Origin: Amphiscolops sp. MND2022
Lineage: Eukaryota
DNA: 64,000 nucleotides
Assembly: GCA_964187785.1 (NCBI GenBank)
Contig: OZ076409.1
Span: forward strand, 55,616,001 to 55,680,000
Direction of reading: 5' to 3'
Under the pieces are notes generated by a model. That model did not search any database. It had not been told where the DNA came from and saw nothing but the letters and a program-made list of their open reading frames with translations. Shown here piece after piece: positions 19,086 through 42,350 of the stretch. The translations under genes and the position numbers were made by a program. Each line of letters opens with the position of its first letter. Positions within the stretch are counted from its first letter, which is position 1.

Positions 19086-20807
19086 TGTGATAATCCTCTA
19101 GGGACTCTGCATCTGACTCTTCGTCTGAATGAATGGTTACATCTACGTCGGATTCACTTCGAAACAAAGGCTTTGCAGGTTGTTTTAATTCTGTCATTTT
19201 AGATGCCCTAACAGGATTACTCTCATCTTCAGATTCAGTACTTTCTATATTGGATGCATGAACTCCTATAGACTCTTTACTTTTAGATCCCGTGGGTTGT
19301 ATATCTTCAATTTCATTAGTTATAGACCTTGGGTTCGTTACTGTTGAGTGACTCCTGTTTGATTTTATCTCTTTCAGAATAGCATCTAGTTTATTCTCCA
19401 TCTCCTCTCTCATTTTTTCAATCCTATCATTGTTTCTCTGATCAATAATCTCGGTCCAAGCTTGCATCTCAGAACTAGCTTGACTGGGTTCGACAAGTTG
19501 ATTTCCTGGGTTCGGTTCTCCTAAATCTCCATCAACATTTAAGTTGGAATTAGTTAAAGTTATATTACCTGTCTCAGAAAAATCAGTTCTAGTTCTATCT
19601 TCCTCTCTTTCTGGGGACGGGGTTGCCAGTCTCCTTGATCTTCTACTTCTCTTATTCCCCATCTTGTTGAGTAAAAAACTAGTTATGGTTGTTGGGGAAG
19701 AATTTTAATTAGTTTCAGATTGGAAAATCCAAACTTCGGGAAAACAATGAAAATGAAAATGAAGACAAAATGAAGGCAAAAGCTTGTATGAATTGATTCA
19801 ACTGCACTTTATGAAGGTTATCTCAATTATATCTTTATCACAAATCACCCTTTTCTCCAAAATAAAAACAATGACAACCATTTTTACAGATATCATAGAA
19901 TCCTGGAAAAACCCAAATATAGTATGATATCATAGTTGCGTAATTCTATTTATAACATCATCACAATGATTCGAATGCACTCAAATGAACTTAAGACCCT
20001 AGAAAAATGCTTTAAAACCGTAGATATAACATCACGAACAGCATAAATTGTATAACGAATGAATACTGCATTATATCGCCGAAAACCGTATATCACCGCA
20101 TATGCAACATATCTCGCAACGTATGGTAACGTATAATGTATATGAACATCGTTGTCAATACGCAAGTTGATGTATATGCTACTTCATTCATTACGCACAA
20201 TCATTCATAATTCAATTATGTGAAACGTATGTTAATGCGTGGTGACTGTCCACAAAACCGCATAGTGACGCATAATGGTAGTGAAAAAAGGTATATCACC
20301 GCATGCTTTTAATACTTAAACGTGCATAATGATGTATGTTCAAAAGCGTATATTGACGTATACTCGTTAAGCTGAAATGCGTATGTTGGTGTATACTTGC
20401 CAAGCCAAAACGTGTATGATGACGTATATACAATAAACCTAATTATGCGTGATACCGCTCTTTGGTATTTACAAAATGTTCAATGACACATGTTAACCAT
20501 CTTGATAACAGTATGATCGCGCATAATGATAAATCAAAAACCACGAGTAAGTCATTCTTATGCAATCACAAAACATATGTTACGTCCATGAATGAAATTT
20601 AAACGGGTCAAGGAGCTTTGAAGGGTCTGCAAAAACAATTAAAAAGGAAACATCCTCAATAAGAACAAATGGATGATCATCAAGATACGGTAGAAAATGT
20701 TATTAGAATGAGTTTTGATGGGTTTAAAATGTTTGTTTCACCAAGTTTTGGGGTTGTTCCTTTTTAGTGCTGCTCTACGGAACCATCGCATCTTGGTGGA
20801 TGCGACA
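19086..20807 (-). repeat. 3' LTR (1722 bp)
   Basis: Matches 34230-35951 at a constant offset of 15144; I counted five substitutions by eye. Confidence 0.97.
20087..20524 (+). promoter_or_regulatory. Phased CGYAT-N5-CGYAT motif array in LTR U3 (copy at 35231-35668)
   Basis: Units, some degenerate, start at 20087, 20120, 20161, 20194, 20226, 20259, 20290, 20323, 20347, 20380, 20413, 20446, 20477 and 20510; spacing is mostly 31-33 bp. Confidence 0.8.
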
Positions 20808-21792
20808 GTCCCGCATTTTTAAAAAGGAACAATGCCGCCTCAAATCCATGGACGAATGCCCTTGATCTTATGGTTCTCTCTTTTACTGTCTCGCCCTCAT
20901 ATTCCGTTGCAGCTAGATACTCGCCCAGGGTCTCCAATGCTATCTGATCGTAGCATTTTCCACATAGTTGACAGTAACATGCGACGTTTGCCATCACTGT
21001 GGGTATCAGTCGAATGCTGTGTCTTTCCTGGGCTGGGATTAATAAAGAGTTAGCACTGTGAGTGGTATTGAAAGGGAACCCGAGTTGAACCATAGGTTGC
21101 ATCAACTGTGTCACTCTTCGAGTCTCATGACTAGTCTCACCGATGTTAAGGGGGAACAACATTGGAGATAAGTTGAATCCCACTACATTTCCCTGCACAG
21201 TACTTTGTGGAGGAACTATATTCCCTTGTGTTTCTTGTTCCATCGGCTCATTTAAAGGCTGTTGTTGGATGCTTGTTAACTCGGGCCTATAGTTTGGCGG
21301 GTACAGAGGTATTGGGCGTGCAAGAATTCCTGAGTCATCAGAACTTCTCCTCTGGTTCGGTGGGACAATAGCGGTGGGTCGGCCATAACTATTGGTGGGT
21401 TCTCTACATCTGTCTCTTTGAGTCCAAGGGGATAAATTCCCTTCTTCAAATTCGCTGTCCACAAACGAATTTGGAGAGGCCACCTGCTCGCTTTGGGGGT
21501 CCCCGATCAAATTCATAAGGTCCCTTTCCAGTTGGGTTCCTGACGCAATAGTGGTTACATCTTGAGTCAGTGATTCGCTTGTACTCGGGAACAAAGTAGC
21601 TGTTGTTGCGCCCACAAATGCCGACATTAGATTGCTCCCAGATGTATTTATTCGAAACTTGTCATCTAGGTGGGTAATGTCTCCGGGGGCGAGGGAAAAA
21701 GAGTCTTCTGATCCGCTTGAAATATCCACCACATCGGGCGATATGGGGGAATAAAGATAGGCATCATCAATGTTGAATTGAGATTTATTCAT
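20764..21792 (-). CDS. 342-aa accessory protein (sense to gag-pol): disordered N-terminus, C-terminal CxCxxCxxC cluster and helical domain
   Basis: Intact ATG-to-TAA ORF containing VACYCQLCGKCYDQ. It reads through the PPT and stops inside the 3' LTR. Confidence 0.8.
   Translation of the reverse strand: MNKSQFNIDDAYLYSPISPDVVDISSGSEDSFSLAPGDITHLDDKFRINTSGSNLMSAFVGATTATLFPSTSESLTQDVTTIASGTQLERDLMNLIGDPQSEQVASPNSFVDSEFEEGNLSPWTQRDRCREPTNSYGRPTAIVPPNQRRSSDDSGILARPIPLYPPNYRPELTSIQQQPLNEPMEQETQGNIVPPQSTVQGNVVGFNLSPMLFPLNIGETSHETRRVTQLMQPMVQLGFPFNTTHSANSLLIPAQERHSIRLIPTVMANVACYCQLCGKCYDQIALETLGEYLAATEYEGETVKERTIRSRAFVHGFEAALFLFKNAGLSHPPRCDGSVEQH
20808..20823 (-). other. Polypurine-tract position (atypical TTTAAAAATGCGGGAC)
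   Basis: Immediately precedes the 3' LTR TGT on the minus strand; similar to TTAAAAACCGGGATGGA before the LTR of element 1. Confidence 0.6.
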
Positions 21793-23310
21793 TTTTTCAA
21801 AGTTACAGAAATGTTACTTGAAGTTTGAAATTTTGAAGGTTTTACAAGCGACTGATTTTCAGTTTAGCAAAGACCATATGGTGAAAATTCTACTTAAAAT
21901 TTCCTGACTTCACTGAAACCCCGCAAAAAACTTGAGTGTCATTGTAGCGTGGGGTCGACAAAGCCTTATATGGAAGTAAGGTTGATAAAACCTTATAAAC
22001 AAAGGTGTTTAGTCTGAGTTCTCTCCTTTAAGGTAAATAAACGAAGTAGGTGTAAGTTTTCCACACCTTCACCAATCGGAACTTTCTTTTGATCATCATT
22101 CAACTTTGTTCCAACTATAACTTGATTAGATGTAAACAAAAAATATCATGAGTTGAGATTTTACCGGGAGGGCAATTCAAAGATTTCATGGAGTTCCGTA
22201 TAAAAATGATCATGAACTTGTATTGATAGAATTAGCTACATGACTATTTTAAAGTTTTACAAAGGGAATAGTAAAATATTGGGTGTCCCGCACTTGAAAA
22301 GTGCGCAATTTCTTACTTCAAATATGATCAAACAGACAGTTCGTTTGTGAGATATCAATAGATTATTTTTGGTCCAAAAGTTTATTTCTAGGTACATCTC
22401 CACAGATTTCTCTTGTAGGCTTATAGTCCATCAACTGGTGTCTGTTTTTTCGTATCGACACTGTATTGCGTATGTTTATCTAAAGTTCTGCGCAAATGCG
22501 CATAACCACCATCACTGAGTGTGTGTATTAGCGTTGCATAATCGTATCACAGCAGCAAGCCATCAAATGAATAATCTCGTTGATTACATAATGTTCGGCG
22601 TAGTCATTCCACTGCAATAGTAGATATTAGCACGTGTTTATACTAGTCATATTTCAGCATAATGTCGTACAATCTGTATCCTTCTTTCCGCGGGTTGCCG
22701 CATACTCGTAGACTATTATTACGTATGCTGTCGTATATTATATATCTGTGAATCCGCATATTGACGTATATGCGCTGGCTGTAAATACGCATGTCACCGC
22801 ATATCAGTACTTTATCTCCGTGTATACACGTGTGCCTTCTGTGACAACTCCGCAGGTTACCGCATATGCCCTCAACACAAGTCCGCACGTTTGTGCTGTG
22901 GCAATTATGTTTGTTTTTATATTGCTTAAATGTCAATTACGTAATCAGACACTCTGGCAGGAAATGACTGACTTTTGAATCGACCAATCAGATTTAAGTA
23001 TATTGTATCTTTTGGTACAACCGCCATATTTATTTGCTTTTTGCCTTTCGTTTGAAACGCCACACCTTTACATTGCATCTTGATCATCACGATTTTACAT
23101 TGTATCTCTCAACGATTATCAACACTTTTTGAATCTTTAATTTTCCCAACTATCCTTTCTTCTCTTTTACTCCAGTTAGAGTTACAGTTCGAGTCCTTAA
23201 AGTCACAAATTTTACTCTTTTCCAATTATTAATTTGATATTGTTGATAAAGTTCTTCAATTTTGTACCCGATTTCTTTTTGGATAAACGTCAGTTGCTTC
23301 CAAATTCGTC
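21793..23310. promoter_or_regulatory. Divergent promoter region between the 342-aa ORF (-) and the six-exon gene (+)
   Basis: Head-to-head ATGs 1.5 kb apart; TATAAG on the minus strand (~21965-21970); CCAAT at ~22072 and ~22984; YY1-like CCGCCATATT at 23021-23030; central motif array. Confidence 0.55.
22656..22865 (+). promoter_or_regulatory. Phased CGYAT-N5-CGYAT array in the divergent promoter
   Basis: Units at 22656, 22689, 22722, 22755, 22788 (exact 33-bp period), then 22819 and 22851. Examples: CGTATGCTGTCGTAT, CGCATATTGACGTAT, CGCATGTCACCGCAT. Confidence 0.82.
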
Positions 23311-26300
23311 ATGGATCCAGGACACCACAGAAAGTCAAGGAAGGACCAAATTTCGCGACGGCAAGGAACTTCTTGGGGATACAAATCCCCGACTTCTACT
23401 ACACCCCGTAAGTACAACTTTGATTCTGTTCAAAATTTTCGAGTTCATTTCAATTTTCCGATCGGACTAATTTGAGCAATTAGCTGGCCAGGCTAATTAT
23501 TTTGAGAAAGTCGACTCTAATTTAGAATCTTGGTTTTGAATTTGTCGGAAGTTAACAACTTCCGGTTTGTTTCATCGGTAACTTCCGCTCATTTTTGAAA
23601 TAATCTGAAACCGCGTCCGGTAGTAGACTATCTTTTGAGTGAAGCTTTTACCTGTTGTGAATAAGCTCCTTATTTATTGTTAGCAGCAAATTCAAATGTT
23701 TTAGTTGAACTCGGAGCTACAGAGAAGTCACCTGCTCGTTCACCGACCAGAACTTACACGCCGCTGGAAGTTGCCTCCCCCAGTAAAACTGCAAATCTTA
23801 TTCAGACGACTGTCCACGACGAGAACGTCGCTACTATTCAGACAGCCGATCCACTTCTTGCTTCAAACATTGCCCCAGCTACTGGCAATGAGCAGGTTGA
23901 AGTGATCACCATTGAGAGTTCAACTGTTGCCTCAACTATAGAAGAAGTTGAGCCGGAGTCTCCTATTATCGACATTCTTAACGAGTCTCCTCCAACGCCC
24001 GAAAATCCCGTAAGTCCAATTCTCACTGGAATCACCATGATGAACATGGACCCATCTGATAATTCAACCGCTAATACAACTAATGTGGATCCAATTCTTC
24101 CTTCCGATCTGCAAATTTCATCACCAAAGTTGACGCAATTCCTCCTTTTATCACAACAAGGGACCTCCACTCGCCAAGGGGCGAAGAAACCTGAATTTCC
24201 TACTGATTTGGAAGAGGGAGATTTTGACATCACCATGGATACCACCCCCACTGAAAATCAAGGAGACGATCAACCTGGGTCAAGTGTCCCAAATATCAGT
24301 TTGACACGGAACGAACTTCTGGTAATCTCCAACGTTTTAGGGAGAGTCCCTACTTCTTTTTTGGGAGAAGAGATTACCCTAACTGGACCGGAAATTTCAG
24401 TGTCGGTGGTGGACAACCCACCAAATCCTCCTCAACGGGTTAATCCTTCGATGGAGAATAACTTGCCGGGAGATAGCTACGTTTACCAAGAGCAAACTGA
24501 GACTGATTTAAACGATGAGCCTGTAGTTCGCAACAAGAGGCAAAGGCCAAGATATTCCCTCAAAGGGAGTATGTTACGTAAACATCCTGTCTTGAAATTT
24601 TCGGCAACAGGACCTATCGATCGCGAAAAAACTCCACATAAATGGTGGTGCCGAGTGTGCAGATTAGAGCTTTCTTTAATGAGCAGAGGCGTCCTTGAAG
24701 TATTAGCACACTATAAAACTGATTCTCACCTAGTTCGAGAACACCGTATAAGGATGGACACACCAGGAATGCCTTTATACGACAAAAATGGACACGAATT
24801 ACAGGGTATTGCCCTTTCAGAAGCCAAAAAGATCGCAAAGGAAACATATCCGATTGTCCCTCAACTGGATCCTTATCGCCTCTTGGTAGGCCAGGACTCA
24901 TTACCCAAATTTGGTGCTGAAAAGAGTCCTATGGAAACCGTCATCTCTCAAATTTGCCTTCTTGAAATTGGACTCAGACGCGGCGGGGATCTTTCTTGTC
25001 TCTCCGATATCTTCGAGGAAGTCAATCGTTTTTCCAGCGAAGGGGGTCCTACTGTTGCTTTTGATTGGAGTCCCCACCGACTTTTCGTAAGTATCTTTCG
25101 CATTTGACAATTTCACATATACATTTATACCTAGTACGATCTTGTAACCATAATTATATTTTAAATAATGTCAGGCTACGTTTAATATATCATCTCTGAA
25201 AATGTTTATTGAATACCGACTTTGCTTTCCAGGGAATGATCACTCATATGTTCCGAGAGCTACTTAACTACTGTGTAACCAACATCACATCTAACGGGAC
25301 ATATTCTCTATCCCTAACACATCTTACAACTGAATCCAACCTCTACTTGGGATTCTGGTCAGGAAATGTGTTTCACCAAGTATGTGTTGGAACTGGACCG
25401 CGAGGATTTTTGATTCCCCGGAGGATTTTGACTTTGGTCTCATCTCTTATTAGCTTGTTCGAGACCCCACCTCCATGTGCCTGTCTAGTTGGGATGGGAG
25501 AAAGGTTGAATTCCTGCCTTGTATCTGCGCTTCCTGGTCAACAGCGTCCCAACTTGCTCAACAATTTCGGTGTGGAAGAGTTTGAAAGATGCCTTGCTTT
25601 GCCCACCGCAAAGATTATTGAAAGACATGATTACAAAACGATTATTGACTTTCTCTTACTTAAGCTGCGCACTGCCCTTGACAGGGATTGGCTGCAAAGT
25701 CTCCCTCTTCTACACAAAGTACGTGGTAGCATGTCAGTTTTGAAAATTCTATTGTTTTTTCCTTTTCATAATCTTATTATTTTATCTCTGTTCTGTTTCC
25801 AGTGCGTGGTGTCTCTACAGTACACCCTGAGTGAAGCTTCTTCTCTCATTGATTGTTTCTCCCGTAATTGGAATCGAATTCAGGACCATCTCACTCAAGT
25901 TTCTCGATTGCCGGCCTACCGATTTCATATGAGAGAAGTGAGTATATTTGATATAAATCTTTCGTAGGGTGATCTTATCCTCTTCAATTTTGGTATATCA
26001 TTTGGTTTCAGCCCAACACACTAGACGAATGTTTTCGTTTGGACACAGCGTACCTTGCGCGCCTATTCATCATTCGCTGTGTCATTGATCATTGTTAGTT
26101 CCCAATTTTCAACTATCTTGTTGTGTGGTTAAGTCTCTTTTTTACCATGCGATATCACATCCACACTGATGTACATTAGCAATTACTATTTAAATTTATC
26201 GTAATACCTCCTTCTTCATCATATTTGACGAACTTAGATGTTTGCTTCGTTTTTGTAACTCTTTCCCATATTTTGTATTCCAGTACTATCCGTAGGGAAA

Positions 26301-27984
26301 ATGAGTATACGGTATATCATTCACCGCATTATGACGTATAAGCGGCTCAACTCTTTCTGTATGGTGACTCATTATCAAGATTAGCATTGATAATTTGGTG
26401 TATTTCTAAAATTTGTCATCCTCGTATGTACGCATATGCGTCATACTAAAATCAGCATTGTTACGTATAGCACATACTGTTTGTCTGTAGAGATATAGGG
26501 CGAAGCTCGATTTCCGTTGGATAACGCATGATTACTGGCTGCAGATATGTATCATGACGCAGATTCAAACTACAAATTCCGCATGATACCGCATAGCTGC
26601 TGTTGATGAAAATGAGGAGTGACGTGTAATGAAATTCAGAATGCGTATGATGCCGTATAGTCGCCGTTGATAAAAGCGAGTAGTGACGTACCATGAAATT
26701 CAGAATGCGTATTATGCCGTATATCTACTGTCTGGAAAGATGCATTATCGCGGGTACTAGAATTATATTTCCGCGTAATAACGTATAATCGCTATCCAAT
26801 AATGCGTACAGTGATGTACATTGATCATTAATGGAGCTGTATATAGATGTTTATTCTCATGTATCTTCTGTTTAGACAATTCCGCTTTCTCCGAGGTGAA
26901 TCGTCGAGTCGATAACGGGTTCAGACTGTACAATCAATTTGCAGTTTTTACGTACAGTCAACTCCAGAATCTGTTTCATGACAGCTTCCTTGGAGATATA
27001 TCCGACTGGGATGGATATTTGGAAATTGACTTGACTAAACCTGATCTGCCGTTTAAAAGCCCGGCTGAGTTCGTCTTACAGCCTGATTATCATGCCTTGG
27101 TTGTTTCCAGTCATCTTCCGAGACCCAGTGTGTTTGTAGTACAATCTCTTGCGTTCTGCAAATCGTTTTGTGCTGCTTTGCTTAATCACGAGATTGTCAA
27201 GTCTAAACTTATCCGAGGTCTTTCATCTTTCGACTATGCTGTCATGTTAGATGGGCCTGAGAAGAATTACTTGTCTGCGATTGAAGATCTCACTAGTCAT
27301 TTCTTTTCCAGTGGATGGTTGTCTTCCAGTGATAAGGTTACAGCTGTAAGTCAGTACCGATCATTTGCCACCAAATTGCGATCTGAGGATGAGGTCAATA
27401 GAGATGATTGGATCAGATTTCTCATCAGCCACCATGAGATGCAGAGTCGTCCTGAGCTTTTGGATGTTTTCAAATTCGCTTGTCTTTGTTTGCCCCCCGT
27501 GGTTGCTGAGCCTGCCAAATTTTGTGTTTCTGTACCTGGACTGTTGTCTGATGTCAATACCTTTAACTCCGTAGTCCGTAGTCTACAGTTATCGTACGTT
27601 ACTGTCCCCAATGTCTCCAGTCTTTATAAAGATCCTAAGACTATCTGCCGAATCTTTCGACTGTTGGGAAGAGGTCCCGGGCTAATACGGGATAGAAAAT
27701 TCTCGATCTGGAGTTTTCTGAAGGGAAACGAGGCACGACGGGCAGCACTATACGAGAAAATGGAGCTTGCTTATAAAAAATCTGTTTTACAAGGGGAAGG
27801 ATTGCCTTTATTCTTGGATGTGCCGACCCCTAGCGCAAGCCGATCGCCAAGTACTAGCAGTTCTTCCAATTCCGGACCCAGGCTCGGACGTGTTTCTTTG
27901 GCTGTCTCACGTTGTGGGGGTGAAGAAGCTGCCTGTAGTTCTAAGAAGGTTGCTAAAAAGGCTGCTAAATCCAAGAAGAATTGA
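23311..27984 (+). CDS. Six-exon antisense gene, 1103 aa: BED/TTF-like zinc finger plus probable inactive hAT-transposase-derived fold. Exons 23311-23407, 23684-25086, 25233-25718, 25803-25937, 26012-26093, 26876-27984
   Basis: Five GT-AG introns (donors GTAAGT, GTAAGT, GTACGT, GTGAGT, GTTAGT; pyrimidine-rich acceptors) with phases 1,0,0,0,1. They join into one 3312-nt frame from ATG to TGA. Zinc-finger motif WWCRVC-x16-H-x5-H at 24643-24729. The hAT assignment is by motif resemblance only. Confidence 0.85.
26325..26819 (+). promoter_or_regulatory. Phased CGYAT-N5-CGYAT array in intron 5 of the antisense gene
   Basis: Units at 26325, 26358, 26454, then 26515, 26548, 26580, 26613, 26644, 26677, 26708, 26741, 26772, 26805 (31-33 bp period). 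A 64-bp higher-order repeat ATGAAATTCAGAATGCGTAT is present. Confidence 0.82.
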
Positions 27985-28178: not shown

Positions 28179-31100
28179 TTAATATCTGAAAGAGTCTGAG
28201 TAATTTGGGTTAGGGTTAGGTCGTAGATTGTATCTTTCACCACGGGTATTTATAGGTTCTTCTTGCAATGGGGTATTTTGTGAATTCTCTGGGGAATTTT
28301 GTGTGTTTTTTGAAACATTTTGAGTATTTTCTGGGGTTTTTTGTATTTCATTGCTCGATGTATTATTTTGTTCTTTTTGGGTTATTTGGGTATTTTGATC
28401 ATCTTCACTGGTGTGTTGTGGAATTTCATCAGCTTGATTCTCATGATTTTGATCTGGTTCAGTGGTCTGATCCACTGGGCTCCCCCCACTATTTTTTGAA
28501 GATACTGGGGAGGGTGGGCGGCTATTGTCAGGTATTTGAATTGGGACATATTCGGTATCCTCAGTATTGTGTATTGCATCTGAGGGAATGTCATCAAATG
28601 GATTTGCTCCAAAATTCGTGTTCCATGATTGGGCATATAGATCATCATTTGCTATAGTCATTTGATCATCTTTTTGCCAGTCGGTTTCGCGAACAAAAAT
28701 GTCTGCTAAAGGGGCCTGCGGTGTGAATTTCCGCAAACGAATCCGATGTAGTAGTTGGGTTTTATTTGTGCCGAGTCTCCTCACAATGTAGTTATTGTTA
28801 GGGAGCACTTTTTCAACTTTATAAGGTCCACACCATCTGAATTCTCGGAATGGTATTTTCGTTGCTTGTGTATCAGCTTTTGGATTAAGAATATAGCAGT
28901 AATCTGTTGTTTCTAACGGGGCTGCTTTTGCTTTTCTATCGTAGTATGCCTTGTATTTAAGGTAAGATTGCATGATATTCTTTTTAGTTTGGTCTGAAAG
29001 TGTTCTCATGCGCTTTTGAATTTCTTCTGCAATATCAGTATGTGGTTGATACCTCGGATTTGGATTGTATCCAAGTTTGTAGTCAAGGATATTGTGTGGT
29101 ATGCGGCCATGGAAAACTCGTGAGGGTTCACAACCGAGTGATGCATGGTATGTTGTGTTATGATTAAGGACTGCTAGAGGAAGATATTTGTGCCAGTTGT
29201 TCCTGAATTCACCTGTGGCGGCTTTTAGGTGTGTTTTAACTGAGGCATGGGTTCTTTCTAAGAGTCCTATGGTTTGTGCATGTTTCATTGTGGCATGTTT
29301 CATTTCGATTCCAAGCACTGCCGCAATTTCATGAGTGACTTGTGCGTTGAATTGAGTGCCTAGATCCGTGATTATAGTTGTTGGAAGGTAGGTGTGTTTG
29401 CATAAGATATCCATTATGACTTTTGAAACTGCTGTTGCGGTAATTCGAGTCACAGGATAGGCAAACAAATACCTTGAGAAGACATCTATTGCTGTGATGA
29501 TGTGATCGTAGCCTCCGCTTGGGGGGAGGTTTGGCAAAATATCCATCTGTAAGATGTCTTCCGGTCCAAGGTCCCATTCGGGACAATTAAGGAGTTCGGT
29601 CCTGAGGAGATCATTGTTGATACGTTTTGTTTGTATACAAATCTGACAATTACTGACCCCTTTCTTTATGTATTTGGCCATACATGGGTAGTAATATTTT
29701 TGACGTGTTTCTTGAATCATCTTGGTAATTCCTGGATGGTTTGAGTTATGTCCATGGAGGGCTTGAAGTAGTTCTTCAAGAAGTTGGATTGGTAAGAGGA
29801 TTTGATAATGCGAGATCATTCCTGTGTCTGTATAGTATTTGCGTGTGAGAACTTCGTGTTTAATCTCGATTCGTGTTATGTTTTGTAAGTAGTGTTGATA
29901 TCTGAAATCGGAAGCTAATTCATTTTCATCAAACGGTTCGCCTTCTATTTTGGCTCTCAGGTTTCGAAGGACTATGTCATTGTTCTGTTCAAGGCGTATC
30001 CTCGCATTGTCCTTGAAGTGTCCAGAGGAGCAGGAGATCAATCCGGATGTAGGTTTGTGAAATTGTTGTAATTCAGAGACGTCGTTCTCTGGGTCATTGT
30101 GAGTTTCGTTTTGTGCTTGATTGCGAGTGTTTTGTTTTTCTTCCCAAAGTTGATTTTCATCGATTTCTTCATCAGGAAGGATGTAAATTTGTTCTTCTTC
30201 TACAATTCCAGTTGATTGTATATTCACTTCAATTGCTTTTGTATGAATATCGTTGCGAATTGTCATTTCGAGCTTCTCGGTTGGGTTACTTTCGGTTCTA
30301 GATAAGAAATCGGCGGCTGTGTTCATCGATCCAGCTACATGGGCGATTACAAAATTGTATTGTAATACATAATCGCATGCATTCCAAAGCGCTGGAGGAA
30401 TCATTTTCGTTTGAAAAAACCGGGTTACAGACCGATTATCCGTGAACACGATGACAGGGAAGGTACTCCCCCACATGAGGTGTCCGAACTCTACGAATGC
30501 AAAATATATTGAGAGGAATTCTTTTGCATAGATTGACATTTTCGTTTGTGTTGGATTGAACGTTTTTGATCCAAACGCAATGGGTGCGTAGGTTTTTCGT
30601 TTGGATTGGAGCTTCTGATTGGGATCGTCTTCAATCATGATGGCATATCCTGCAGCTGTGAAGCTTGCATCGGACATGACTATGAGTTGTTTGTCTTTCA
30701 AGGGTTGTTTCAACGCGAGTTGGCAAGAATTTCCCAAAAGTTGATTGAGGTTTGTAAAGTCTTCAACCAAGTTTGTAGGAACATAAATTTTGGAGGTTTC
30801 TTTGAGGAGTTTGAAAAACGGGGTGAGTCGTTCTGAAAGGTGAGGTATATAGTTTCGGTAATAATTCAAGAATCCGATATACCTTTGTAGTGCCTTTTTC
30901 GATTTTGGGAATTTGAGTTTTGCCAAAAAATCTTTCACTTTGTCGGCTTGAGGGGCAACTCCATCTGGTCTGATTGTGCGTCCTAAAAAGTCGACTTGTT
31001 TAACTCCGAAATGACATTTCGACATGGAGAGTTTCAGTCCGGCATTCCGGATGCATTCAAAAACGGTTTTTATGTTGATACACAATTGGTTTGAGTCGTT

Positions 31101-33119
31101 TGCTGCAATGCCTATATCATCGACATATTGTGCACATTGGTCCGCTTTTATTGCTCTGTCCAGATATTCTCTCATAAAGCTGGAAAAAGCTGAGAGGGAT
31201 CTGCTGAGGCCTTGGGCAAGGCGACGATAAGCAAATGTTCTGCTTGCAAAATTGAAAGCGAGCATTTGTATGGATTGATAATCTGCCATCTGTAGGCAAT
31301 GGTAAGCTTGGGAGCAGTCCAATTTGCAGAAAAGTTTTTTCCCTGCCATGTGTTGAGCTGCATCAGATAAAGTGCTTACCGGATGGTTGTTGTTTGCGTA
31401 ATCTTCAGTTATAAGATTATTGATTTTCCTGAGATCTACAAGGAGTCTGAGGCGCCCGTTCGGTTTGCGTTGCGCGAAGATCGGGCTAGCGTATTTGGAG
31501 AATGGTAAGGTTGTAATGATGCCATATTTATGGAGAAGTGCAAGTTCTACTGTGATGTCATCTTTCAAGTTTATTGGGGTTGGCAGACTTTGGCTGTAAG
31601 CTGGTCTGTCATCGTTTGGTGTTAGCTTTACTTTGAACTCACGATTTATGCCTATGTCAAAGCGATGTCGGGCAAAAACGTCGTGGAATTCGACGAGAAT
31701 TTCTTCAATTTCAGCTTGTTCAGTTTGACTGAGTGTTGTGTCGGACCAATCAAAGTTTGAGAGGAATGCTTTCCTGGATGATTCATTGTCATGTGGGTTA
31801 AGTTTTTCGAGTTCTTTTAGCTCTAGGAGTTCGTTGTATATCCGTTGTTGGATTGGAGTATATGTAGTTGGGTCGCCTGGGTCTTCTGGTGTAGGGAACC
31901 AGTACGACTCTTGTTCTGAGTTTTGTTGAGGTACTTTTAGTAGTTCGTTGATGTATACTTCTGTGGTTTCCTCATGTTGTATCATAAACGATAGTACCGA
32001 TGGGTCTATTGGTTGAATGTGTTTGATTTGTTCTGGAGTAAGAATTTTGAAATCTGCTAAATGGGTATCAAGGGTTATTGTATAGGGCAATTCCGAAAAA
32101 TTTATGATTTGATATCCAATAGCATTGTTATTAACTGTGCTAAGGGATGCAGTTATAAAAATACTATCATGGTTTTCGAATTGGTGTGAAGGGGTGACTA
32201 TTCCGGTTACATTATGGTCCATTAGATGAGGCATTTTGCTTGCTATGGCGAGTGTTTCGCCTGGTCGGAGGGTGTATGTATTTTCTGCAAACAATGGTGT
32301 TGCCTGCCTTATTGCTGTTTGGGTATCGGGTTTAAGTTGCATTGAAAGATAAGGAAAGGTTAGAATGCCTTGGGTGACATCGAAAATTGCATTGTTCCTT
32401 CGAAGGAAACACAGTCCGATTAGCGGATTTGGTAGGTTCTTCATAATGATAAAATTTTCCTTGAGCATGAAATCAGCTACTTCAAATTCTAGTAAGACTG
32501 TACCAGTGGGAACTTCTAATTGACCGTTTGCCACCATGATCTGGAAGTTAGGTGGGGGACCGGTTTCTTTGATAGCTTCATTTGCTAACAGCTTGATTTT
32601 ATTGAGGTCTTGTTCAGAAATGGCGCTTGTTAGGGCTCCTGTATCAATAAGACCGTCAAGAGTGAGTTTTTCAAAATCCATCGGTAAGTAGTACATGTGG
32701 CGTTTTCGTTTCAACGTTAAAGAGGTGGAGATTGGGAGATATTGCAAATTCCGTTCTTTGTCAAATTGTATGTGTTCTGTAAGATCTTCATTTAATAGAG
32801 GTTGTTTTTGATCATCACAAGAAGTTTTTATGGTGACGAGGTTTTTAATGGGTGAGTCTTGTGGGTGAATTTCGGGGTTTGAGTCAATGTCGGAGTGGGT
32901 TGGTTGCTCTATAAAGTAGTTGTCTGGTGCATCACGGAGGAGTTCGTATATGTCTTCAGATTGAGTTTTTTGTGTTGATTGTTGAGAGTTTTGTGTTGTT
33001 AAATCTGTTTGTGCAATGATTGTTTTTGTGATTTTAGGGCTCAGTTGATGCTGCCAGTCATCAGCTGAGTTTGGTTTATGTTGAGATTTGGTGTAAAGGC
33101 GTGGCGTTTCTAGTTTAAA
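28179..33119 (-). CDS. pol: Pol polyprotein (aspartic protease, dUTPase-like remnant, RT, RNase H, integrase), expressed by -1 frameshift
   Basis: Uninterrupted ORF with LIDTGA; YTLRPGETL..GIV..IINFS..TIT (dUTPase-like); YVDD; SDAS..FTDN (RNase H); HGHNSNHPG..CQIC zinc finger; D..D..E core; GPY. Confidence 0.96.
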   Translation of the reverse strand, partial: FKLETPRLYTKSQHKPNSADDWQHQLSPKITKTIIAQTDLTTQNSQQSTQKTQSEDIYELLRDAPDNYFIEQPTHSDIDSNPEIHPQDSPIKNLVTIKTSCDDQKQPLLNEDLTEHIQFDKERNLQYLPISTSLTLKRKRHMYYLPMDFEKLTLDGLIDTGALTSAISEQDLNKIKLLANEAIKETGPPPNFQIMVANGQLEVPTGTVLLEFEVADFMLKENFIIMKNLPNPLIGLCFLRRNNAIFDVTQGILTFPYLSMQLKPDTQTAIRQATPLFAENTYTLRPGETLAIASKMPHLMDHNVTGIVTPSHQFENHDSIFITASLSTVNNNAIGYQIINFSELPYTITLDTHLADFKILTPEQIKHIQPIDPSVLSFMIQHEETTEVYINELLKVPQQNSEQESYWFPTPEDPGDPTTYTPIQQRIYNELLELKELEKLNPHDNESSRKAFLSNFDWSDTTLSQTEQAEIEEILVEFHDVFARHRFDIGINREFKVKLTPNDDRPAYSQSLPTPINLKDDITVELALLHKYGIITTLPFSKYASPIFAQRKPNGRLRLLVDLRKINNLITEDYANNNHPVSTLSDAAQHMAGKKLFCKLDCSQAYHCLQMADYQSIQMLAFNFASRTFAYRRLAQGLSRSLSAFSSFMREYLDRAIKADQCAQYVDDIGIAANDSNQLCINIKTVFECIRNAGLKLSMSKCHFGVKQVDFLGRTIRPDGVAPQADKVKDFLAKLKFPKSKKALQRYIGFLNYYRNYIPHLSERLTPFFKLLKETSKIYVPTNLVEDFTNLNQLLGNSCQLALKQPLKDKQLIVMSDASFTAAGYAIMIEDDPNQKLQSKRKTYAPIAFGSKTFNPTQTKMSIYAKEFLSIYFAFVEFGHLMWGSTFPVIVFTDNRSVTRFFQTKMIPPALWNACDYVLQYNFVIAHVAGSMNTAADFLSRTESNPTEKLEMTIRNDIHTKAIEVNIQSTGIVEEEQIYILPDEEIDENQLWEEKQNTRNQAQNETHNDPENDVSELQQFHKPTSGLISCSSGHFKDNARIRLEQNNDIVLRNLRAKIEGEPFDENELASDFRYQHYLQNITRIEIKHEVLTRKYYTDTGMISHYQILLPIQLLEELLQALHGHNSNHPGITKMIQETRQKYYYPCMAKYIKKGVSNCQICIQTKRINNDLLRTELLNCPEWDLGPEDILQMDILPNLPPSGGYDHIITAIDVFSRYLFAYPVTRITATAVSKVIMDILCKHTYLPTTIITDLGTQFNAQVTHEIAAVLGIEMKHATMKHAQTIGLLERTHASVKTHLKAATGEFRNNWHKYLPLAVLNHNTTYHASLGCEPSRVFHGRIPHNILDYKLGYNPNPRYQPHTDIAEEIQKRMRTLSDQTKKNIMQSYLKYKAYYDRKAKAAPLETTDYCYILNPKADTQATKIPFREFRWCGPYKVEKVLPNNNYIVRRLGTNKTQLLHRIRLRKFTPQAPLADIFVRETDWQKDDQMTIANDDLYAQSWNTNFGANPFDDIPSDAIHNTEDTEYVPIQIPDNSRPPSPVSSKNSGGSPVDQTTEPDQNHENQADEIPQHTSEDDQNTQITQKEQNNTSSNEIQKTPENTQNVSKNTQNSPENSQNTPLQEEPINTRGERYNLRPNPNPNYSDSFRY

Positions 33120-34806
33120 TCCTTCGATGAGGATTGTTGGGGTCTTTCCATTTTTGGCTTGATTGGTTTTTTGGCTTGTTTGTATGCTTCTATGACTTTC
33201 TTTTGTGCCTCGGTGAGTGGCCATTTAGGTGGGCGGTTTTCCATATTGGCACCAAAATAACAATTTTCCTCTTCATGCCCTGGGGTGTTGCAGTTCTGGC
33301 ATTTTTCAGCCTCAGGGTCTTCCTCAAGTTTTCAAGTTTTCGCCGTTTAGCTAACTTGGGGCAGTCAGTCATCATATGGCCCGTTTCCTTGCAGTAACGG
33401 CACTGGTCATTTTTAAGAGTTTTGTCTGGTACTGTTTTGGGAGTTTGTTTCTTGCCTTTATCCGTTTGTTTTTTGTCAGTTTTTTCAGTGTTTTGGTCTT
33501 TTTTAGTTACGGTCATTTGAGTTTTGACAAGGGGTTCGTCTGCCTCTAGACCGTTAAGTTCCATTTCGCGTTCTAGGTGTTTAACGATTTGGTCATAGGT
33601 GCCATTTTCAAGGTATGCTTGATTAATGGACTTCTTTAAATGGGGAGGCATTTTAGCATAGAGTAGATTCTCTATCATTTGATGTGCATTTTCCCCAAAT
33701 GCCTTTTCTGCGCTTTCTTGAAGTTCTTCAAGGAAGTCAGGGAGTTTTTGATTTTCGGGTTGGAACGAAAGTCTGTGAAATCTGTGTTTTGCTGATGCAC
33801 TAGACTCCGGTTTTACATATTTCCTGCGAAACACCTTCAAGATGTCTTCCAGTGTGGTATTGGGGGTTCTTTGTATGTTTTTGAATGTTTTGAGTGCCAA
33901 GCCTCTGAGGTGTGCATGAAAATGATTGATTTTCATCTCCTCTGTGAGGTTGGGTTGCATGCGAAGAGTTGTATGAAATAGGTCTTCAAAGTATTCAAAT
34001 TGTTCATTTTTCTCATTTTTGCCATTAAATGTAAGTGTATTTTTGGGATGAAAGAGTGATTGTGGAGTATTTTTGTTGGCTAATTTCTCTATTGCGAGTG
34101 CAATTTGATTAACTGGGTCGAGTGGTTTGGTTGTTGATGTTGATGTGTTTTGGTCTGCGCGGGATCCTAAGGTATCATTAAGTTTTTGAGAACTTTGTCT
34201 ATGGAGTTGTCGGTTGGCTCCTGTCACCATGTGATAATCCTCTAGGGACTCTGCATCTGACTCTTCGTCTGAATGAATGGTTACATCTACGTCGGATTCA
34301 CTTCGAAACAAAGGCTTTGCAGGTTGTTTTAATTCTGTCATTTTAGATGCCCTAACAGGATTACTCTCATCTTCAGATTCAGTACTTTCTATATTGGATG
34401 CATGAACTCCTATAGACTCTTTACTTTTAGATCCCGTGGGTTGTATATCTTCAATTTCATTAGTTATAGACCTTGGGTTCGTTACTGTTGAGTGACTCCT
34501 GTTTGATTTTATCTCTTTCAGAATAGCATCTAGTTTATTCTCCATCTCCTCTCTCATTTTTTCAATCCTATCATTGTTTCTCTGATCAATAATCTCGGTC
34601 CAAGCTTGCATCTCAGAACTAGCTTGACTGGGTTCGACAAGTTGATTTCCTGGGTTCGGTTCTCCTAAATCTCCATCAACATTTAAGTTGGAATTAGTTA
34701 AAGTTATATTACCTGTCTCAGAAAAATCAGTTCTAGTTCTATCTTCCTCTCTTTCTGGGGACGGGGTTGCCAGTCTCCTTGATCTTCTACTTCTCTTATT
34801 CCCCAT
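33110..34806 (-). CDS. gag: Gag; 562 aa once an 8-bp duplication at 33324-33339 is removed, frameshifted as assembled
   Basis: Capsid-like TFNGKNEK..FEYFEDLF..HLRGLALKTF; knuckle CRYCKETGHMMTDC; a second knuckle CQNCNTPGHEEENC in the shifted frame; ends GAT TTA AAC TAG. Confidence 0.9.
33113..33119 (-). other. -1 ribosomal frameshift slippery heptamer T TTA AAC
   Basis: X XXY YYZ in the restored gag frame directly before the gag TAG; a -1 shift enters the pol frame (TTT AAA CTA GAA). Confidence 0.85.
34212..34229 (-). other. Primer-binding site TGGTGACAGGAGCCAACC (tRNA-Leu-like, tentative)
   Basis: Begins TGG directly after the LTR terminal CA. The first 12 nt resemble the complement of eukaryotic tRNA-Leu 3' ends (TGGTGTCAGGAG) with one mismatch. 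Confidence 0.75.
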
Positions 34807-35951
34807 CTTGTTGAGTGAAAAACTAGTTATGGTTGTTGGGGAAGAATTTTAATTAGTTTCAGATTGGAAAATCCAAACTTCGGGAAAACAATGAAAATGA
34901 AAATGAAGACAAAATGAAGGCAAAAGCTTGTATGAATTGATTCAACTGCACTTTATTAAGGTTATCTCAATTATATCTTTATCACAAATCACCCTTTTCT
35001 CCAAAATAAAAACAATGACAACCATTTTTACAGATATCATAGAATCCTGGAAAAACCCAAATATAGTATGATATCATAGTTGCGTAATTCTATTTATAAC
35101 ATCATCACAATGATTCGAATGCACTCAAATGAACTTAAGACCCTAGAAAAATGCTTTAAAACCGTAGATATAACATCACGAACAGCATAAATTGTATAAC
35201 GAATGAATACTGCATTATATCGCCGAAAACCGTATATCACCGCATATGCAACATATCTCGCAACGTATGGTAACGTATAATGTATATGAACATCGTTGTC
35301 AATACGCAAGTTGATGTATATGATACTTCATTCATTACGCACAATCATTCATAATTCAATTATGTGAAACGTATGTTAATGCGTGGTGACTGTCCACAAA
35401 ACCGCATAGTGACGCATAATGGTAGTGAAAAAAGGTATATCACCGCATGCTTTTAATACTTAAACGTGCATAATGATGTATGTTCAAAAGCGTATATTGA
35501 CGTATACTCGTTAAGCTGAAATGCGTATGTTGGTGTATACTTGCCAAGCCAAAACGTGTATGATGACGTATATACAATAAACCTAATTATGCGTGATACC
35601 GCTCTTTGGTATTTACAAAATGTTCAATGACGCATGTTAACCATCTTGATAACAGTATGATCGCGCATAATGATAAATCAAAAACCACGAGTAAGTCATT
35701 CTTATGCAATCACAAAACATATGTTACGTCCATGAATGAAATTTAAACGGGTCAAGGAGCTTTGAAGGGTCTACAAAAACAATTAAAAAGGAAACATCCT
35801 CAATAAGAACAAATGGATGATCATCAAGATACGGTAGAAAATGTTATTAGAATGAGTTTTGATGGGTTTAAAATGTTTGTTTCACCAAGTTTTGGGGTTG
35901 TTCCTTTTTAGTGCTGCTCTACGGAACCATCGCATCTTGGTGGATGCGACA
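34230..35951 (-). repeat. 5' LTR (1722 bp): U3 motif array, TATAAATA at 35091-35098, AATAAA at 34952-34957, Gag ATG at 34806
   Basis: Matches 19086-20807, has TG...CA ends and is followed by the PBS. Confidence 0.97.
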
Positions 35952-35980
35952 ACAAGTAAACAGACAGTTGCGCGTATTAG

Positions 35981-36265
35981 ATTACGATGAATGCCAAGAC
36001 GATCATAACACGGTGTGCGATGACATTTATGCTATCTGTGTCAACAGTGAAGGAAGTTTCCACTGTGAGTGCAATCAGGGATACTGGAGAGCTGATGACT
36101 CACAATCATGTGAAGATTGGGATGAATGTAAATGCGGCCTGAACAAAACTGAATGCGACACGTTTATTTGTGGACAGTTTCGTGTGTGTACAAACACTCC
36201 CGGCTCATTCACGTGTGATTGTCAAGAAGGATATGCAAACGTTGTCGCTAGTCTCATTTGCGTAG
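35981..36265 (+). CDS. Host gene exon with two cbEGF domains
   Basis: Acceptor attag at 35980 and donor GTGAGT at 36266, phase 1-1. Reads DYDECQ..CVNSEGSFHCEC..DWDECK..CTNTPGSFTCDC. Confidence 0.9.
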
Positions 36266-36668
36266 GTGAGTTCAGCCAAGCTGAAGACAGAACACTGAGA
36301 GGGTTTGATTTTGGGCCGGACGCTTTCGCTTAATAAATGATGCTCGCCAAAATCAACCTGTGTTCAAAATGAGCTCAATGGCTGCTCTGGAAATTTTAAA
36401 TTATTTCGAATCACAGAAAATACAGCTCTTTTGCGTAGAATCTCTTTCATAATACAGCGTTATTTGATCCCTTTTGTCTCAAAAAAAAAGTTTTTTGGAC
36501 TCGATTATGTAACAGATAGTTTTACACCTTTCGACCATAAACTCAATCCGGAACTAAGTAAGAGAGCATCAATCATCTGACTCTTGCAGCAACCGGGTAA
36601 AACACCTGATTCGAACCAAGATTCAAAACTACTGATCACTAATAATATTTTAAACGCGTTTCATTCAG

Positions 36669-37473: not shown

Positions 37474-40400
37474 ACAATACATTGATAATTTAACTCTGTT
37501 CCATTTTCATTGCTCCTTTCACAACTATATTAGCGAATTGCATAAATCTTTTGTGGCTGGTTGTTGTTTAAGTATATCTCGACAATTATTATCGTTTTAA
37601 ATTTCACGGCATTCCGTGACTTCGTTTCAAAAGTGTTTCCATCATCCCAATTTAACCTCTTTGATTACTTTAATGTTTGTGAATCACTTAGAAACAAAAA
37701 GTGACCAACGGCCGCATCTAAGAATTCTGGACCTTCCCACAAGCCACTTCAAAAATTTTCTCGAACAAACAGACTTAAGCTAGTTTAACTGACGTTCCGC
37801 ACTTTGAGCATTAGGCCGAATGTCCCCGCTCATTATTATTGATGGGCTGAACTAGATGGCTTAAACATGACGGGATAGATGTTTGTGAAACTGATGTCAA
37901 CGACACAATCAAGAAGCCAGAAGTGGAGTTGGAAAAAGACACAAAAGTGATTGGGAAAAACTGTTTGTTGAAATCACTGGAAAAACTAAATTCTTTTATT
38001 GATGATTGTCTAGTTTACATGTTGCCAGGGACTGATTGTGTTTACATTAGAAGTGCACCTTAGACACTCATCAAAGTTCCTCTAGTGGCAGCTGATAAGT
38101 TCACTGGGCACTGATCTGAAATCTATGCCTTAGTTTGAGGAAAACGTAGTCAAAATTTCTCTTGAATCCATTAAACTGTCGACTTCTTGGATGTAGAACA
38201 TCAAAACACAATTGAATACACACTGCTTACGGTATTTTCACAACAACTATTTTTTGACAAAACCTTAGTTTTGAAAACTTAGGTTATTGACATTTGTAAT
38301 GTTTTGTTTAAAGTAAGGAACGGACGTTCTAGGGATGATTCATTTATTCGATTTTTCTTAACTAGCTTGCAGAAAGTTGCCAACGTAGTGCTGAAGCAAA
38401 AACTACTCGGCGTACACTTTGAAAGTTTCGAAAGTTTAAGAAACCTGAAAATGACATTCGAATAAAAGAGTGCGAAAAATATGATTAGTAAATGATAAGT
38501 AAACCAAAGTATGAAGCTAGGCAGCAGTTTAACCTGAGGGAGAACTATCTATTCGAAGACTTCATGGAGAATATTTCTTAATCCTGACGTCAATGAAAAT
38601 TTTTACATTGCTCTCACAGTAAACCAGTACAAATCGCCGCCTATCTACATTTTGTCTGATATTCGATGTAAATAAAGTAATGGAGGTGTTTTCAAACTGC
38701 CGTCGCGATAAAACCGAAAGCTTCAGCGGCTGCTCCGAAAAGCCTTCAAGAGAAACTTTCTGTAACTTAACTTCATTAAAAATCTGCATGTTTCGGATGT
38801 TTTACAATTCCTGAAGCAACCTTAACGGTGAAAAAACTCGACCTGTTCCAGTCTGTAGTTGCTGCTAGTGACGCAAAATATGCTTTTCTCTTCAAAATCA
38901 CTGTTTTTAAAAACGAAGATTGTGGTGCCAAAAGCGAATTCTTCCAAAAATCAGGACATTGTGAAATAGTAGGCCACGAGCTATTAAATTGTGAAAACAC
39001 TATAAATCACTGCATTATTGACAATTTACGGCAAATAGCAGGAGGCTACAAGTACCGTAGGCTTGATTAGGCATTGAGACTCATTTCAAGCAATTATTAC
39101 TATAAGAACCATTTTGCTAAGAAAGCCTAAGCTTCTATTCACAGTTTGTCTTGACGAAACTAGCAATTTGCTAATTCAGTCTTCTCGGAAGAGTTTAGAG
39201 TCATTCTAAACTTCTTTTTCTGGTCTGCTACGTGGTTGTTATGATTTCGGGCAATGTTTTTCCTATTCTCCGGACAGGTATTTTTACTGACACGGGCACG
39301 ATTTGCGGTAACCAATTGAAATTTGTAGTTCCCTCGTTTCTTGAACGAATTTTTCAAGCGTGATAAAAGAGCTGATCGTCACAGTACAAAATGTGAAAAT
39401 CTTTTTGCTTCATTTTTGAAATTTGCTAATGGAATATGACCGCAACAGTTTGCAGAATCAAAAGGCCATTGGATTTGAATAAAAGTTGCAGAGGGCAGAG
39501 TGTAGCGGCAAGCGCTGAGCGATTGTATCGTAACATTGGAGTGGAGGAACTTGTACCATGGATATGGTCCGGGACAAACCACCATGATATCAGCTCACTT
39601 TGTCCTCCTCAGGATAGCCGGTCCCGAGGAGGGGGAACCGTCTTAAAGGATGCTCTCCGGCCTGTTCCAGTCTGTAACTGCTGAGAATATCGGGCATTAT
39701 GCTTTTTCTCTTCACAACCATCGTCTAGACAGCCTTTAAAAACAATAAACAATGCCAAGGAAAAACCGTGTAAGTTTCCAATTCCAGGGTGAATTTCCAG
39801 GGTGTCATGAAAATAAGGTCTAAAATGGGGAATAAGATCTAAACTGCGAAAGCGCTCGAGACAGCTAAAACAAGTGAAAATACATAGAAACAGGCATAAA
39901 TATGGTAAACGACACACCTACAAGCTGGGGCGTAGGGACTCCAAGCACCAAACAAGTATAATTAAGCGAAAAGACGCATTTTTCCGGTTCTTGCTACATT
40001 GGGTAGCATAACTCTGAAAATCGGTATAAACCGGGGTTAGCACCTCAAAAAGTGTCTATTTATGAGTTTTCTAAGCGCTCCGGCTTTTGCATTCCGTGCT
40101 CCCGTTTGGTCGTCTCCGAGGGCCGCTTGCTTTGTCTTCTGAACAGCTTTTTTGACAGACATTACAGTGCACAGGCAAGCTTTTTGCTGCTTTTCGTGGA
40201 ATCCGGGACACGAAAATTTCTGTTTGATGTTAAGCGTGTCTTGGATTCCACGACAGTGCTTGTCCTGGATTCCACGCCAATACTGCTGCTATAATGACAC
40301 TTTTGCCGCTGCTCTCTGATTGGTCCGCTGATTTTGAGTAATCATTTTTGGAAAGGTAGAAAAATTTAAATTAATTCAATTTTATATCAATGGAACTTGT

Positions 40401-41379
40401 TTTGATTGACACGAAAAGTCCCAGAGTACGAATAGAGATACTCATGACTGGTACCAAAATTAAAGCATGTCATCAAATAATGGCAGATTGTGATGATCTG
40501 GCAGTTTGTTCAAAACTGGTACTAAACCTAAAAATACGAATATTTGTGTAATATAATATTCATTTTACATGATCATTATTAGAAAGGCAGAAGAACTCGA
40601 ATTAAATCAATTTTACATCGAAGGAAATTGTTTTGATTGACACGAAAAATCCAAGAAGTACGAATAGAGATATTCATGACTGGTACCAAAGTTAAAGCAT
40701 GTCATCAAATAATGGCAGATTGTGATGATCTGACAGTTTGTTCAAAACTGGTACCAAACCTAAAATTACGAATATTTGTGTAATATAATATTCATTTTAC
40801 ATGATCATTATTAGAAAGGCAGAAAAACTTGAATTAAATCAATTTTACATCAAAGGAAATTGTTTTGATTGACACAAAAAATCCAAGAAGTACGAATAGA
40901 GTTAGAATTTCTTAGAAATTTTATGCAGTTTACAAGAATGTTTGTTTGAAATTTCTGCGACAAAAAGTACAAAAGTTTAAAATTGCAAATTTTGACAAAA
41001 ATTAATCTAATTGGCACTTTTTTTTTATTTTCACCAAGTTGAAAAAATTTACATATCACTGGAACTTGTTTTGATTGACACGAAAAGTCCCAAAGTACGA
41101 ATAGAGATACTCGTAACTGGTACCAAAAATGAAGCATGTCATTAAAAAATGGCAGATTGTGATGATCTGGCAGTTTGTTCAAAACTGGAATAAACTGTGA
41201 AAAATACGAATATTTGTATTCGTACGAAACCACCTACACATCTTAAACGGTAAAGAAACAACTACCAAAAGGGGTACGTCAAAATTTAAATTCGAATATA
41301 CAGAGCCATACAACAAAAAGCTATTTATTTTAGCTTTAAATTTTAGATTTTTTTAGCTTATTTATATTTTAGATAGAGA

Positions 41380-42329
41380 CCCGCTGATTGAAATAGAGAC
41401 AGAAGACTTCAGTGACGAAGCAGATTCTACCATTTTGATCCGCGAACGTGTGCGAGGCACAAAAATAGAAGGAGGCTCCCAAAAAGAGAGAGGCAACATC
41501 GTGAAAGAGAACGGAAACACTCTAACCATTCTGCCAAGATGTGGAAAAAGCACAATCATTTCAAAGATGGATGTAGCAAACACAAGGCACAGCTCAACAA
41601 GGCAACACAAAGCCAAATTCGGCAGAAAAGAAGAAACGTCGAAAAATGCCAAAAGGTGAAAAAGTGACAATTACGAAGAAAGTGCCAATTTACATAAGAT
41701 CCCAAAAATACACATTGAAAGAAGAAATGGGACAAGTGACTCAAAGTGGAAGCTTAGCAAAAGCAGATGTACGAGAACAAGACGAAAGAAAGAACAAAGT
41801 TGAAGAGAATGAGACTGAGTCAGGATCGGAATATTATGAAACACAGGCAGAGGGAGAAGCTACTGCAGTGGCGACTGAGAACAACGGACAAGAAGAAGAA
41901 GAAAACCTTAGACAAAACAACAAGCATGTAATCCAAGAAGAGGTCAAGTCGGAAGTAAGCCAACAGAGATTCTCAAAAAGAAACAGAAGAAAGCCTGATC
42001 GGTTGGAGCAAAATTTGATGGTCGCCAAGCGTTTTTGAGATAGAGAAGCCCTGAAACAAAACATCATATGTTAAAGTAATTTTATGTTCTTGTTGCCTAT
42101 GTTGTATAAGCTATTAATGAGTTGTAATCTTAAACTTTTTTACATGTCATATGTGGTTGTAGTAACCATACTAGTAACCCGTGCTTAAACCCCATTTACC
42201 GAGTGGTGTAGTAAAACCGAATGTATTTGAGCAGTAAGCTGAGACTTTTGTACTATTCGTTTCAATTTAGTCGTAAGAGACGACATTTTTTATACTCTGC
42301 TGACACGTGAAGTCTTAAGATCAGCTACA
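41380..42329 (+). mobile_element. 3' relic of an LTR retrotransposon (integrase tail plus short LTR 42158-42329)
   Basis: Acidic tail ending RFSKRNRRKPDRL (41646-42038), followed by a TGTAG...CTACA-bounded 172-bp segment. Confidence 0.45.
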
Positions 42330-42350
42330 GTGAAGGAGAAACCAACACAT

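Follow-up and report, generated by a model that had tools for sequence, protein, structure and literature searches.

Phased direct dyads in the LTR and around the antisense accessory gene of an Amphiscolops Ty3/Gypsy retrotransposon: candidate sites for a regulator encoded by the element

Transcription of retrotransposons with long terminal repeats (LTRs) is usually thought to depend on host factors. In the VANDAL elements of Arabidopsis, the motifs associated with the VANC protein are dense, share one orientation and lie both upstream of the main gene and in an intron of the regulator (PMC5735166, PMC10398659). Spm TnpA, an activator derived from a transposase, acts on motifs that occur in clusters (bioRxiv 10.64898/2026.08.24.746577), and foamy virus Tas/Bel1 has response elements in the LTR as well as in an internal promoter (PMC517496). 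Antisense extra open reading frames (ORFs) are carried by the plant elements Retand, Grande and RIRE2 and by the fungal element Boty (PMC11963269, PMC7264820, 10.1101/2021.04.13.439636); the available text gives no established function or origin for such genes in plant and fungal Gypsy elements (PMC7264820, PMC11963269). Internal promoters are known in the Tor elements of Oikopleura (PMC4402516), and captured third genes in rotifer elements (PMC5408684). The present analysis concerns a 64,000-nt stretch from Amphiscolops sp. MND2022 (contig OZ076409.1, positions 55,616,001 to 55,680,000; hereafter the window), which holds a young Ty3/Gypsy LTR retrotransposon of 16,866 bp running on the minus strand from 35951 to 19086. 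One short direct dyad is arrayed in the U3 region of its LTRs and, with strand and phase unchanged, recurs at two non-coding sites in the interior, next to and within an antisense accessory gene. These dyads are read here as sites through which the element's own 1103-aa accessory protein would regulate its own promoter and the LTR, a proposal considered to be evenly poised between right and wrong.

The locus resembles the VANC/VANDAL system by its element-encoded accessory protein and its same-orientation non-coding arrays, one of them in the regulator's own intron. It differs in that VANDAL is a plant Mutator-like DNA transposon, whereas the present element is an animal LTR retrotransposon with another motif; binding and demethylation belong to VANC and would be conjecture here. 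No similarity to VANC was detected, in so far as the three long accessory exons match no Pfam family, a scan in which the VANC sequence itself was not compared. A transposase-derived regulator, probable here, and clustered motifs are shared with Spm TnpA, the difference being that the latter concerns DNA transposons and host genes, with zero occurrences of 'retrotransposon' and 'LTR' as whole words in the available text. Candidate elements at both the LTR and an internal promoter recall foamy virus Tas by their layout only. The gene for the retroviral protein Tas lies behind env in the sense direction, in contrast to the present accessory gene, which is antisense, multi-exonic and codes for about 1100 aa. 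The position of this gene between pol and the 3' LTR, common to the family copies, is that of the antisense genes of Retand, Grande and Boty. Those of Retand, Grande, RIRE2 and Boty, however, code for TRP28 or different domains, and the available text describes their origin as unknown and reports no motif shared by LTR and gene; TRP28 (PF04195) gave no match in Pfam scans of the accessory proteins. In the literature searched (titles and abstract openings, mostly open-access, without supplements), no regulator of hAT derivation was reported for an LTR element. The locus offers a candidate regulator and a precise candidate site within one young element. If the proposal is true, animal retrotransposons would join plant DNA transposons and complex retroviruses in encoding their own sequence-specific regulation, and class I elements would have taken over a class II gene to serve in regulation.

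The U3 array spans 35230..35669 on the minus strand. Its unit is the direct dyad YATRC-N5-YATRC, with a 10-bp step from one half-site to the next. A preliminary description of this DNA had counted about 14 phased units there, and the motif and matrix scans bear this out: 14 non-overlapping units lie at 35669, 35636, 35605, 35572, 35539, 35506, 35482, 35449, 35418, 35385, 35353, 35320, 35279 and 35246, with 11 of the 13 spacings at 31–33 bp and two phase breaks, of 24 and 41. Nine units are exact, whereas 300 dinucleotide shuffles gave 0.04 on average and never more than 1. Exact dyads with the five-base gap number 24 on the minus strand and 2 on the plus strand of the whole window; none of the other gaps between 0 and 12 exceeds 3 matches on either strand. 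A matrix built from the 12 internal sites finds 18 minus-strand matches in the LTR, all within 35679–35226, which correspond to the 14 units plus 4 half-shifted duplicates. The array had also been said to explain in part the length of the LTR; it does account for about 440 bp (26%), but gag coding sequence adds more (577 bp, 34%).

The recurrence of the dyad inside the element had escaped the preliminary description. Among the 24 exact minus-strand dyads of the window, 23 lie within the element: nine in each LTR, three upstream of the accessory gene and two inside it. Cluster A (22688..22866, minus strand; five sites, 22866–22704, with a 33-bp period) lies between the divergent genes for a 342-aa and the 1103-aa protein, upstream of the latter. 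Cluster B (26324..26820, minus strand; seven sites, 26820–26340) occupies the last intron of the accessory gene and contains a 64-bp tandem repeat. With the U3-trained matrix, the five sites of cluster A compare with a shuffle mean of 0.22 (maximum 2) and the seven of cluster B with 0.25 (maximum 3), in 300 shuffles each. Consecutive sites are 31–33 or 62–66 bp apart in 18 of 21 cases (null mean 1.9, maximum 9 in 20,000), three of these 18 stemming from a single 64-bp duplication in cluster B. The dyad cores are 64–77% alike within and between clusters, whereas the spacers are 31–33% alike between clusters and within U3, and 47–53% within the two small internal clusters. The coding parts of the element show no enrichment (15 matrix matches versus 22 expected), and the 47 kb outside it hold 6 scattered single matches. 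Because the cores are alike and the spacers are not, the spacing is phased, coding DNA is unenriched and outside matches are single, the motif is kept position by position, at three places, in non-coding DNA only.

This pattern bears on the idea that the arrays are neutral relics, either tandem repeats that have decayed or subterminal repeats left by a DNA transposon formerly nested here. Tandem arrays of unknown function are indeed common in long Gypsy elements (PMC11963269), and cluster B underwent a recent 64-bp duplication. Neutral decay, however, does not account for cores that are kept while spacers are at background level; none of the 305 candidate inverted-repeat pairs flanks the gene with a target-site duplication of at least 5 bp, and the LTR, which holds the largest array, is remote from every putative transposon end. 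A neutral origin is held to be very improbable.

A more serious competitor is control by a host transcription factor, with the array as its ordinary U3 enhancer and the internal clusters placing the accessory genes under the same control. U3 regions vary widely and are thought to adapt to host tissues (PMC3601003), four U3 units contain a TGACG half-site, and a palindromic bZIP-type site, RTTAYGTAAY at 22936, adjoins cluster A; together with a CCAAT box at 22984 it forms a candidate internal promoter of the accessory gene (22936..22988, plus strand). A reading of the array as cAMP response element (CRE) palindromes was rejected, as no full TGACGTCA exists anywhere in the element. The same absence speaks against the host factor, the fixed feature being the 10-bp direct dyad, and so does the scarcity of the motif outside the element, in a sample of only about 47 kb of host DNA. 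Control by a host factor would also leave unexplained why the clusters bracket the gene for a nuclear-looking finger protein, and it is judged rather unlikely.

Downstream of the array, the order given in the preliminary description holds, all of it within the 5' LTR: the TATA box TATAAATA (35098–35091), AATAAA (34957–34952) and the Gag ATG (34806), on the minus strand. The array had been placed just upstream of the TATA box. It is indeed upstream, and the only minus-strand TATAWAW of the LTR, a putative promoter element at 35091..35098, follows it, but the units end near 35230, about 130 bp short of the box. A heptamer TCATACT (35065..35071, minus strand) resembles the initiator consensus YYANWYY; its A at 35069 lies 29 bases past the TATA box, and transcription is predicted to start near there. 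The AATAAA hexamer (34952..34957), a putative poly(A) signal, is followed by a U-rich tract (about 34930–34870, minus strand), the layout expected for LTRs of animal Metaviridae (PMC3601003). The 5' LTR has this hexamer, but the 3' LTR, where the hexamer would act, reads CATAAA (at 19813), one of the 5 mismatches between the LTRs. From these landmarks, R is predicted to be about 140 nt and U5 about 700 nt. The array had further been likened to a transactivator response element. The U3/TATA/R layout fits, and the recurrence of the dyad at the 1103-aa gene, with its conserved finger, lends this idea some support; binding, start site and enhancer activity are predictions.

The accessory gene runs antisense to the element (23311..27984, plus strand) as an open-frame model of six exons (23311–23407, 23684–25086, 25233–25718, 25803–25937, 26012–26093 and 26876–27984). 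Sixteen acceptor/donor combinations are open and give 1069–1103 aa, the exon 2 acceptor and the exon 5 donor of the model being one choice. Homologues join exons 2 and 3, as well as exon 3 and the last exon; the exon 2 donor is read through as Val in 38 of 43 of them. The 1103-aa protein consists of an acidic P/S/T-rich N-terminal part (net charge −30 over 283 aa), a basic patch, a C2H2/BED-like finger and a helical C-terminal part. The finger follows the pattern C-x2-C-x16-H-x5-H, and its ligands C55, C58, H75 and H81 are 98–100% conserved in 49 sequences. In Pfam, 3 of these 49 match zf-BED (one above the cut-off) and 5 match zf-C2H2_ZN292.

On the other side of cluster A lies the sense ORF of 342 aa (20764..21792, minus strand), with an acidic N-terminal part and a Cys cluster near the C-terminal end; its last 44 nt are in the 3' LTR. 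This protein, instead of the 1103-aa one, might be the binder or the main activator. It has stayed intact in the family (10 of the 12 members of its cluster have 341–342 aa), it has the acidic part and the Cys cluster, and cluster A, located upstream of it, is oriented as in U3. No DNA-binding domain was recognised in it, however, by a Pfam scan that returned no match and that left distant homologues and fold aside, and cluster B is inside the other gene. Such a role is hardly to be expected.

Several lines, each weak by itself, agree in kind and order, which makes a hAT transposase origin of the accessory gene a reasonably probable, model-based conclusion. The predicted structures have a pLDDT (predicted local distance difference test) of 87 for the finger and 76 for the last exon. 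With Foldseek, ZBED1 comes at rank 2 for the finger (E 1.8), the BED rows not being significant. In the Atlas search, FAM200/ZBED5, GTF2IRD2, zf-BED or hAT families account for 6 of 8 rows among the matches listed, families that are presumably hAT-derived for the most part; no usable match was obtained there for the last exon. The last-exon model has Hermes transposase (8edg) at rank 1 of 48,161 chains, matching Hermes residues 368–593. Besides this weak fold likeness of the C-terminal part, the present finger would have a parallel in Hermes, whose N-terminal finger binds cooperatively to short repeated motifs, as BED fingers of hAT transposases do (PMC10368747). Hermes differs by its AAGT site, and the terminal inverted repeats and 8-bp target duplication that are hallmarks of hAT transposons are absent around the present gene; a nested hAT element was rejected on the 305 candidate end pairs mentioned above. 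At E<=0.001, neither model had a Foldseek match in PDB, nor did the last-exon model in BFVD, and the second-look structure alignment was restricted to Foldseek's own rows. Sequence searches of PDB with both profiles gave weak unrelated rows only. The alignment of exon 3 (6 rows) has one conserved acidic column, and a DDE catalytic triad is not evident, as judged by eye in the expected register. The 1103-aa protein is probably a derivative of a hAT transposase that no longer cuts DNA.

The reading of the dyads as sites for this protein is based on the three same-strand phased clusters, the conserved finger and a gene that travels with the family. Two fingers would contact the YATRC halves, which are one helical turn apart, and with a distance of three turns between units an oligomer could load along a single face of the DNA. 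Transcription of the accessory gene would begin at the candidate internal promoter next to cluster A, with its CCAAT box at 22984 and its palindromic bZIP-type site at 22936; the encoded protein would feed back on its own gene, and it would activate, or keep unsilenced, the LTR TATA promoter driving gag-pol. A layout of this kind has been proven for VANC (PMC5735166) and for foamy virus Tas (PMC517496). The arrangement suggests that the element may produce an on-switch of its own.

A number of points weigh against this proposal and its hAT component. The 64-bp spacings of cluster B go back to a single recent duplication and do not count as independent. Selection of the internal sites had initially used the U3-trained matrix, so the scan of the LTR with the internal matrix is not fully independent either. 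The Hermes match is weak (Z 4.9, root-mean-square deviation 5.9, 167 aligned) and tied with unrelated rows; hAT Pfam families, including Dimer_Tnp_hAT, were found in 0 of 54 last-exon homologues (E up to 0.5); and the Atlas scores of 0.84–0.87 have the value of a lead. In a wide fold search, the finger is matched best by that of TUT4, which is RNA-associated (Z 4.6), and the genomic-RNA strand carries all dyad sites, as would be the case for an RNA signal.

The last two points lead to the possibility of an RNA signal: the units would act within the genomic transcript, in export, packaging or the control of splicing, and be read by the element's finger protein or by an RNA-binding protein of the host. 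The shared orientation of the three clusters on that strand and the likeness of the finger model to TUT4 and TUT1 fingers are in keeping with it. Folding of the array, however, gave no RNA structure (z 0.83 and 0.85), Rfam gave no match, spacings of 10 and 31–33 fit DNA helical turns, and the DNA motifs of VANC are likewise arrayed in one orientation (PMC5735166). An RNA function appears quite improbable.

How the accessory gene evolves can be followed in its relatives. Four family markers were used, namely the 342-aa ORF, exon 3, the last exon and a gag stub; at least two of them occur on 14 contigs and all four on 4, contigs being equated only indirectly. That these markers are found together indicates that the accessory gene moves with the element. 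The finger region has relatives in 235 clusters, the last exon in 114. For Pol, clusters at 90% identity or above hold 839 members (best 120 of 326 matches), whereas among last-exon members 11 of 730 are at 95% or above and 501 of 730 at 50–59%, fragments inflating the member counts of both. The last exons (P0355–P0467) fall into many clusters with a median pairwise identity of 54%, versus hundreds of Pol members (P0001–P0120) with above 90% identity to this copy. This suggests faster diversification or swapping for the accessory module than for Pol. No long relatives of the last exon came out of the search made for them, and no DNA of relatives was present in the viral, metagenome or prokaryote-genome contigs searched. 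A wider scenario can be put forward tentatively, and is doubted somewhat more than it is believed: an animal LTR lineage would have captured a hAT transposase and kept it, disarmed, to transactivate or unsilence its own LTR in a subfamily-specific manner, the regulator-plus-array modules diversifying much faster than Pol, which would amount to a VANC/TnpA-like arrangement within class I.

The assignment and youth of the element follow from its LTR pair, the CTTGT duplication, the order of the pol domains and the Gag matches. The 5' LTR (34230..35951, minus strand; TG...CA) and the 3' LTR (19086..20807, minus strand) are both 1722 bp long and 99.7% identical, with 5 mismatches; the latter carries a copy of the array (20086–20525) and a 192-codon gag stub. 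The 5-bp target-site duplication CTTGT is at 35952..35956 (minus strand), with its second copy at 19081–19085. A primer-binding site starting with TGG directly follows the 5' LTR (34212..34229, minus strand), and a purine-rich tract precedes the 3' LTR (20808..20820, minus strand); no tRNA genes were found in the window. Gag (33190..34806, minus strand; 538 aa) has capsid-like and CCHC matches in Pfam and is followed by pol (28179..33224, minus strand), with the protease, reverse transcriptase, RNase H and integrase in the Ty3/Gypsy order. As paired LTRs with a target-site duplication, primer-binding and purine-rich sites beside them, and gag before pol are all present, the element is a Ty3/Gypsy retrotransposon.

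The first 192 codons of gag (34230–34806) lie in the LTR, so that each 3' LTR has a Gag stub reading into flanking DNA, and minus-strand strong-stop DNA would be about 840 nt. In a protein collection, the gag-stub cluster of 9, which includes the window's own copy, has all nine members matching at 189–192 of the first 192 residues and then nine different tails. The shared stub followed by divergent tails confirms the LTR end and points to several independent insertions. The start Met of Gag is common to the relatives P0141 and P0145. The N-terminus, MGNKRS (34806–34789, minus strand), is followed by a basic stretch and fits the myristoylation pattern M-G-x-x-x-S. A strong-looking splice donor, AG/GTAAT (about 34712, minus strand), lies early in gag within the LTR and could possibly serve a subgenomic RNA or the suppression of the 5' poly(A) site. 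Compared with the in-frame Gag-Pol relative P0141, this copy uses three frames, with switches near 33340 and 33200; those at the gag-pol junction (33190–33350, minus strand) may reflect damage or recoding.

The element is inserted antisense in a host gene with EGF_CA exons (35952–36333, plus strand), apparently within an intron and some 30 nt ahead of an acceptor, and further EGF-like exons are near 10093, 10198 and 36680. Elsewhere in the window, a head-to-tail duplicate of about 1.42 kb with 99.3% identity (11730–14570) is either a recent duplication or an assembly artefact. The region 40331–48900 contains nested direct repeats, with 232-bp tandem units and 0.7–1.1-kb duplicates at 97–98%; a 50-bp inverted arm is present at 41226, and these repeats are possibly non-autonomous DNA transposons. 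A gap of 200 N bases lies at 53884–54083. Satellite-like arrays are seen at 55090–55783 and 57286–57885, with periods of 174 bp and 29/179 bp. The host DNA of the window has CpG observed/expected ratios of 0.84 and 0.93, with little sign of CpG decay.
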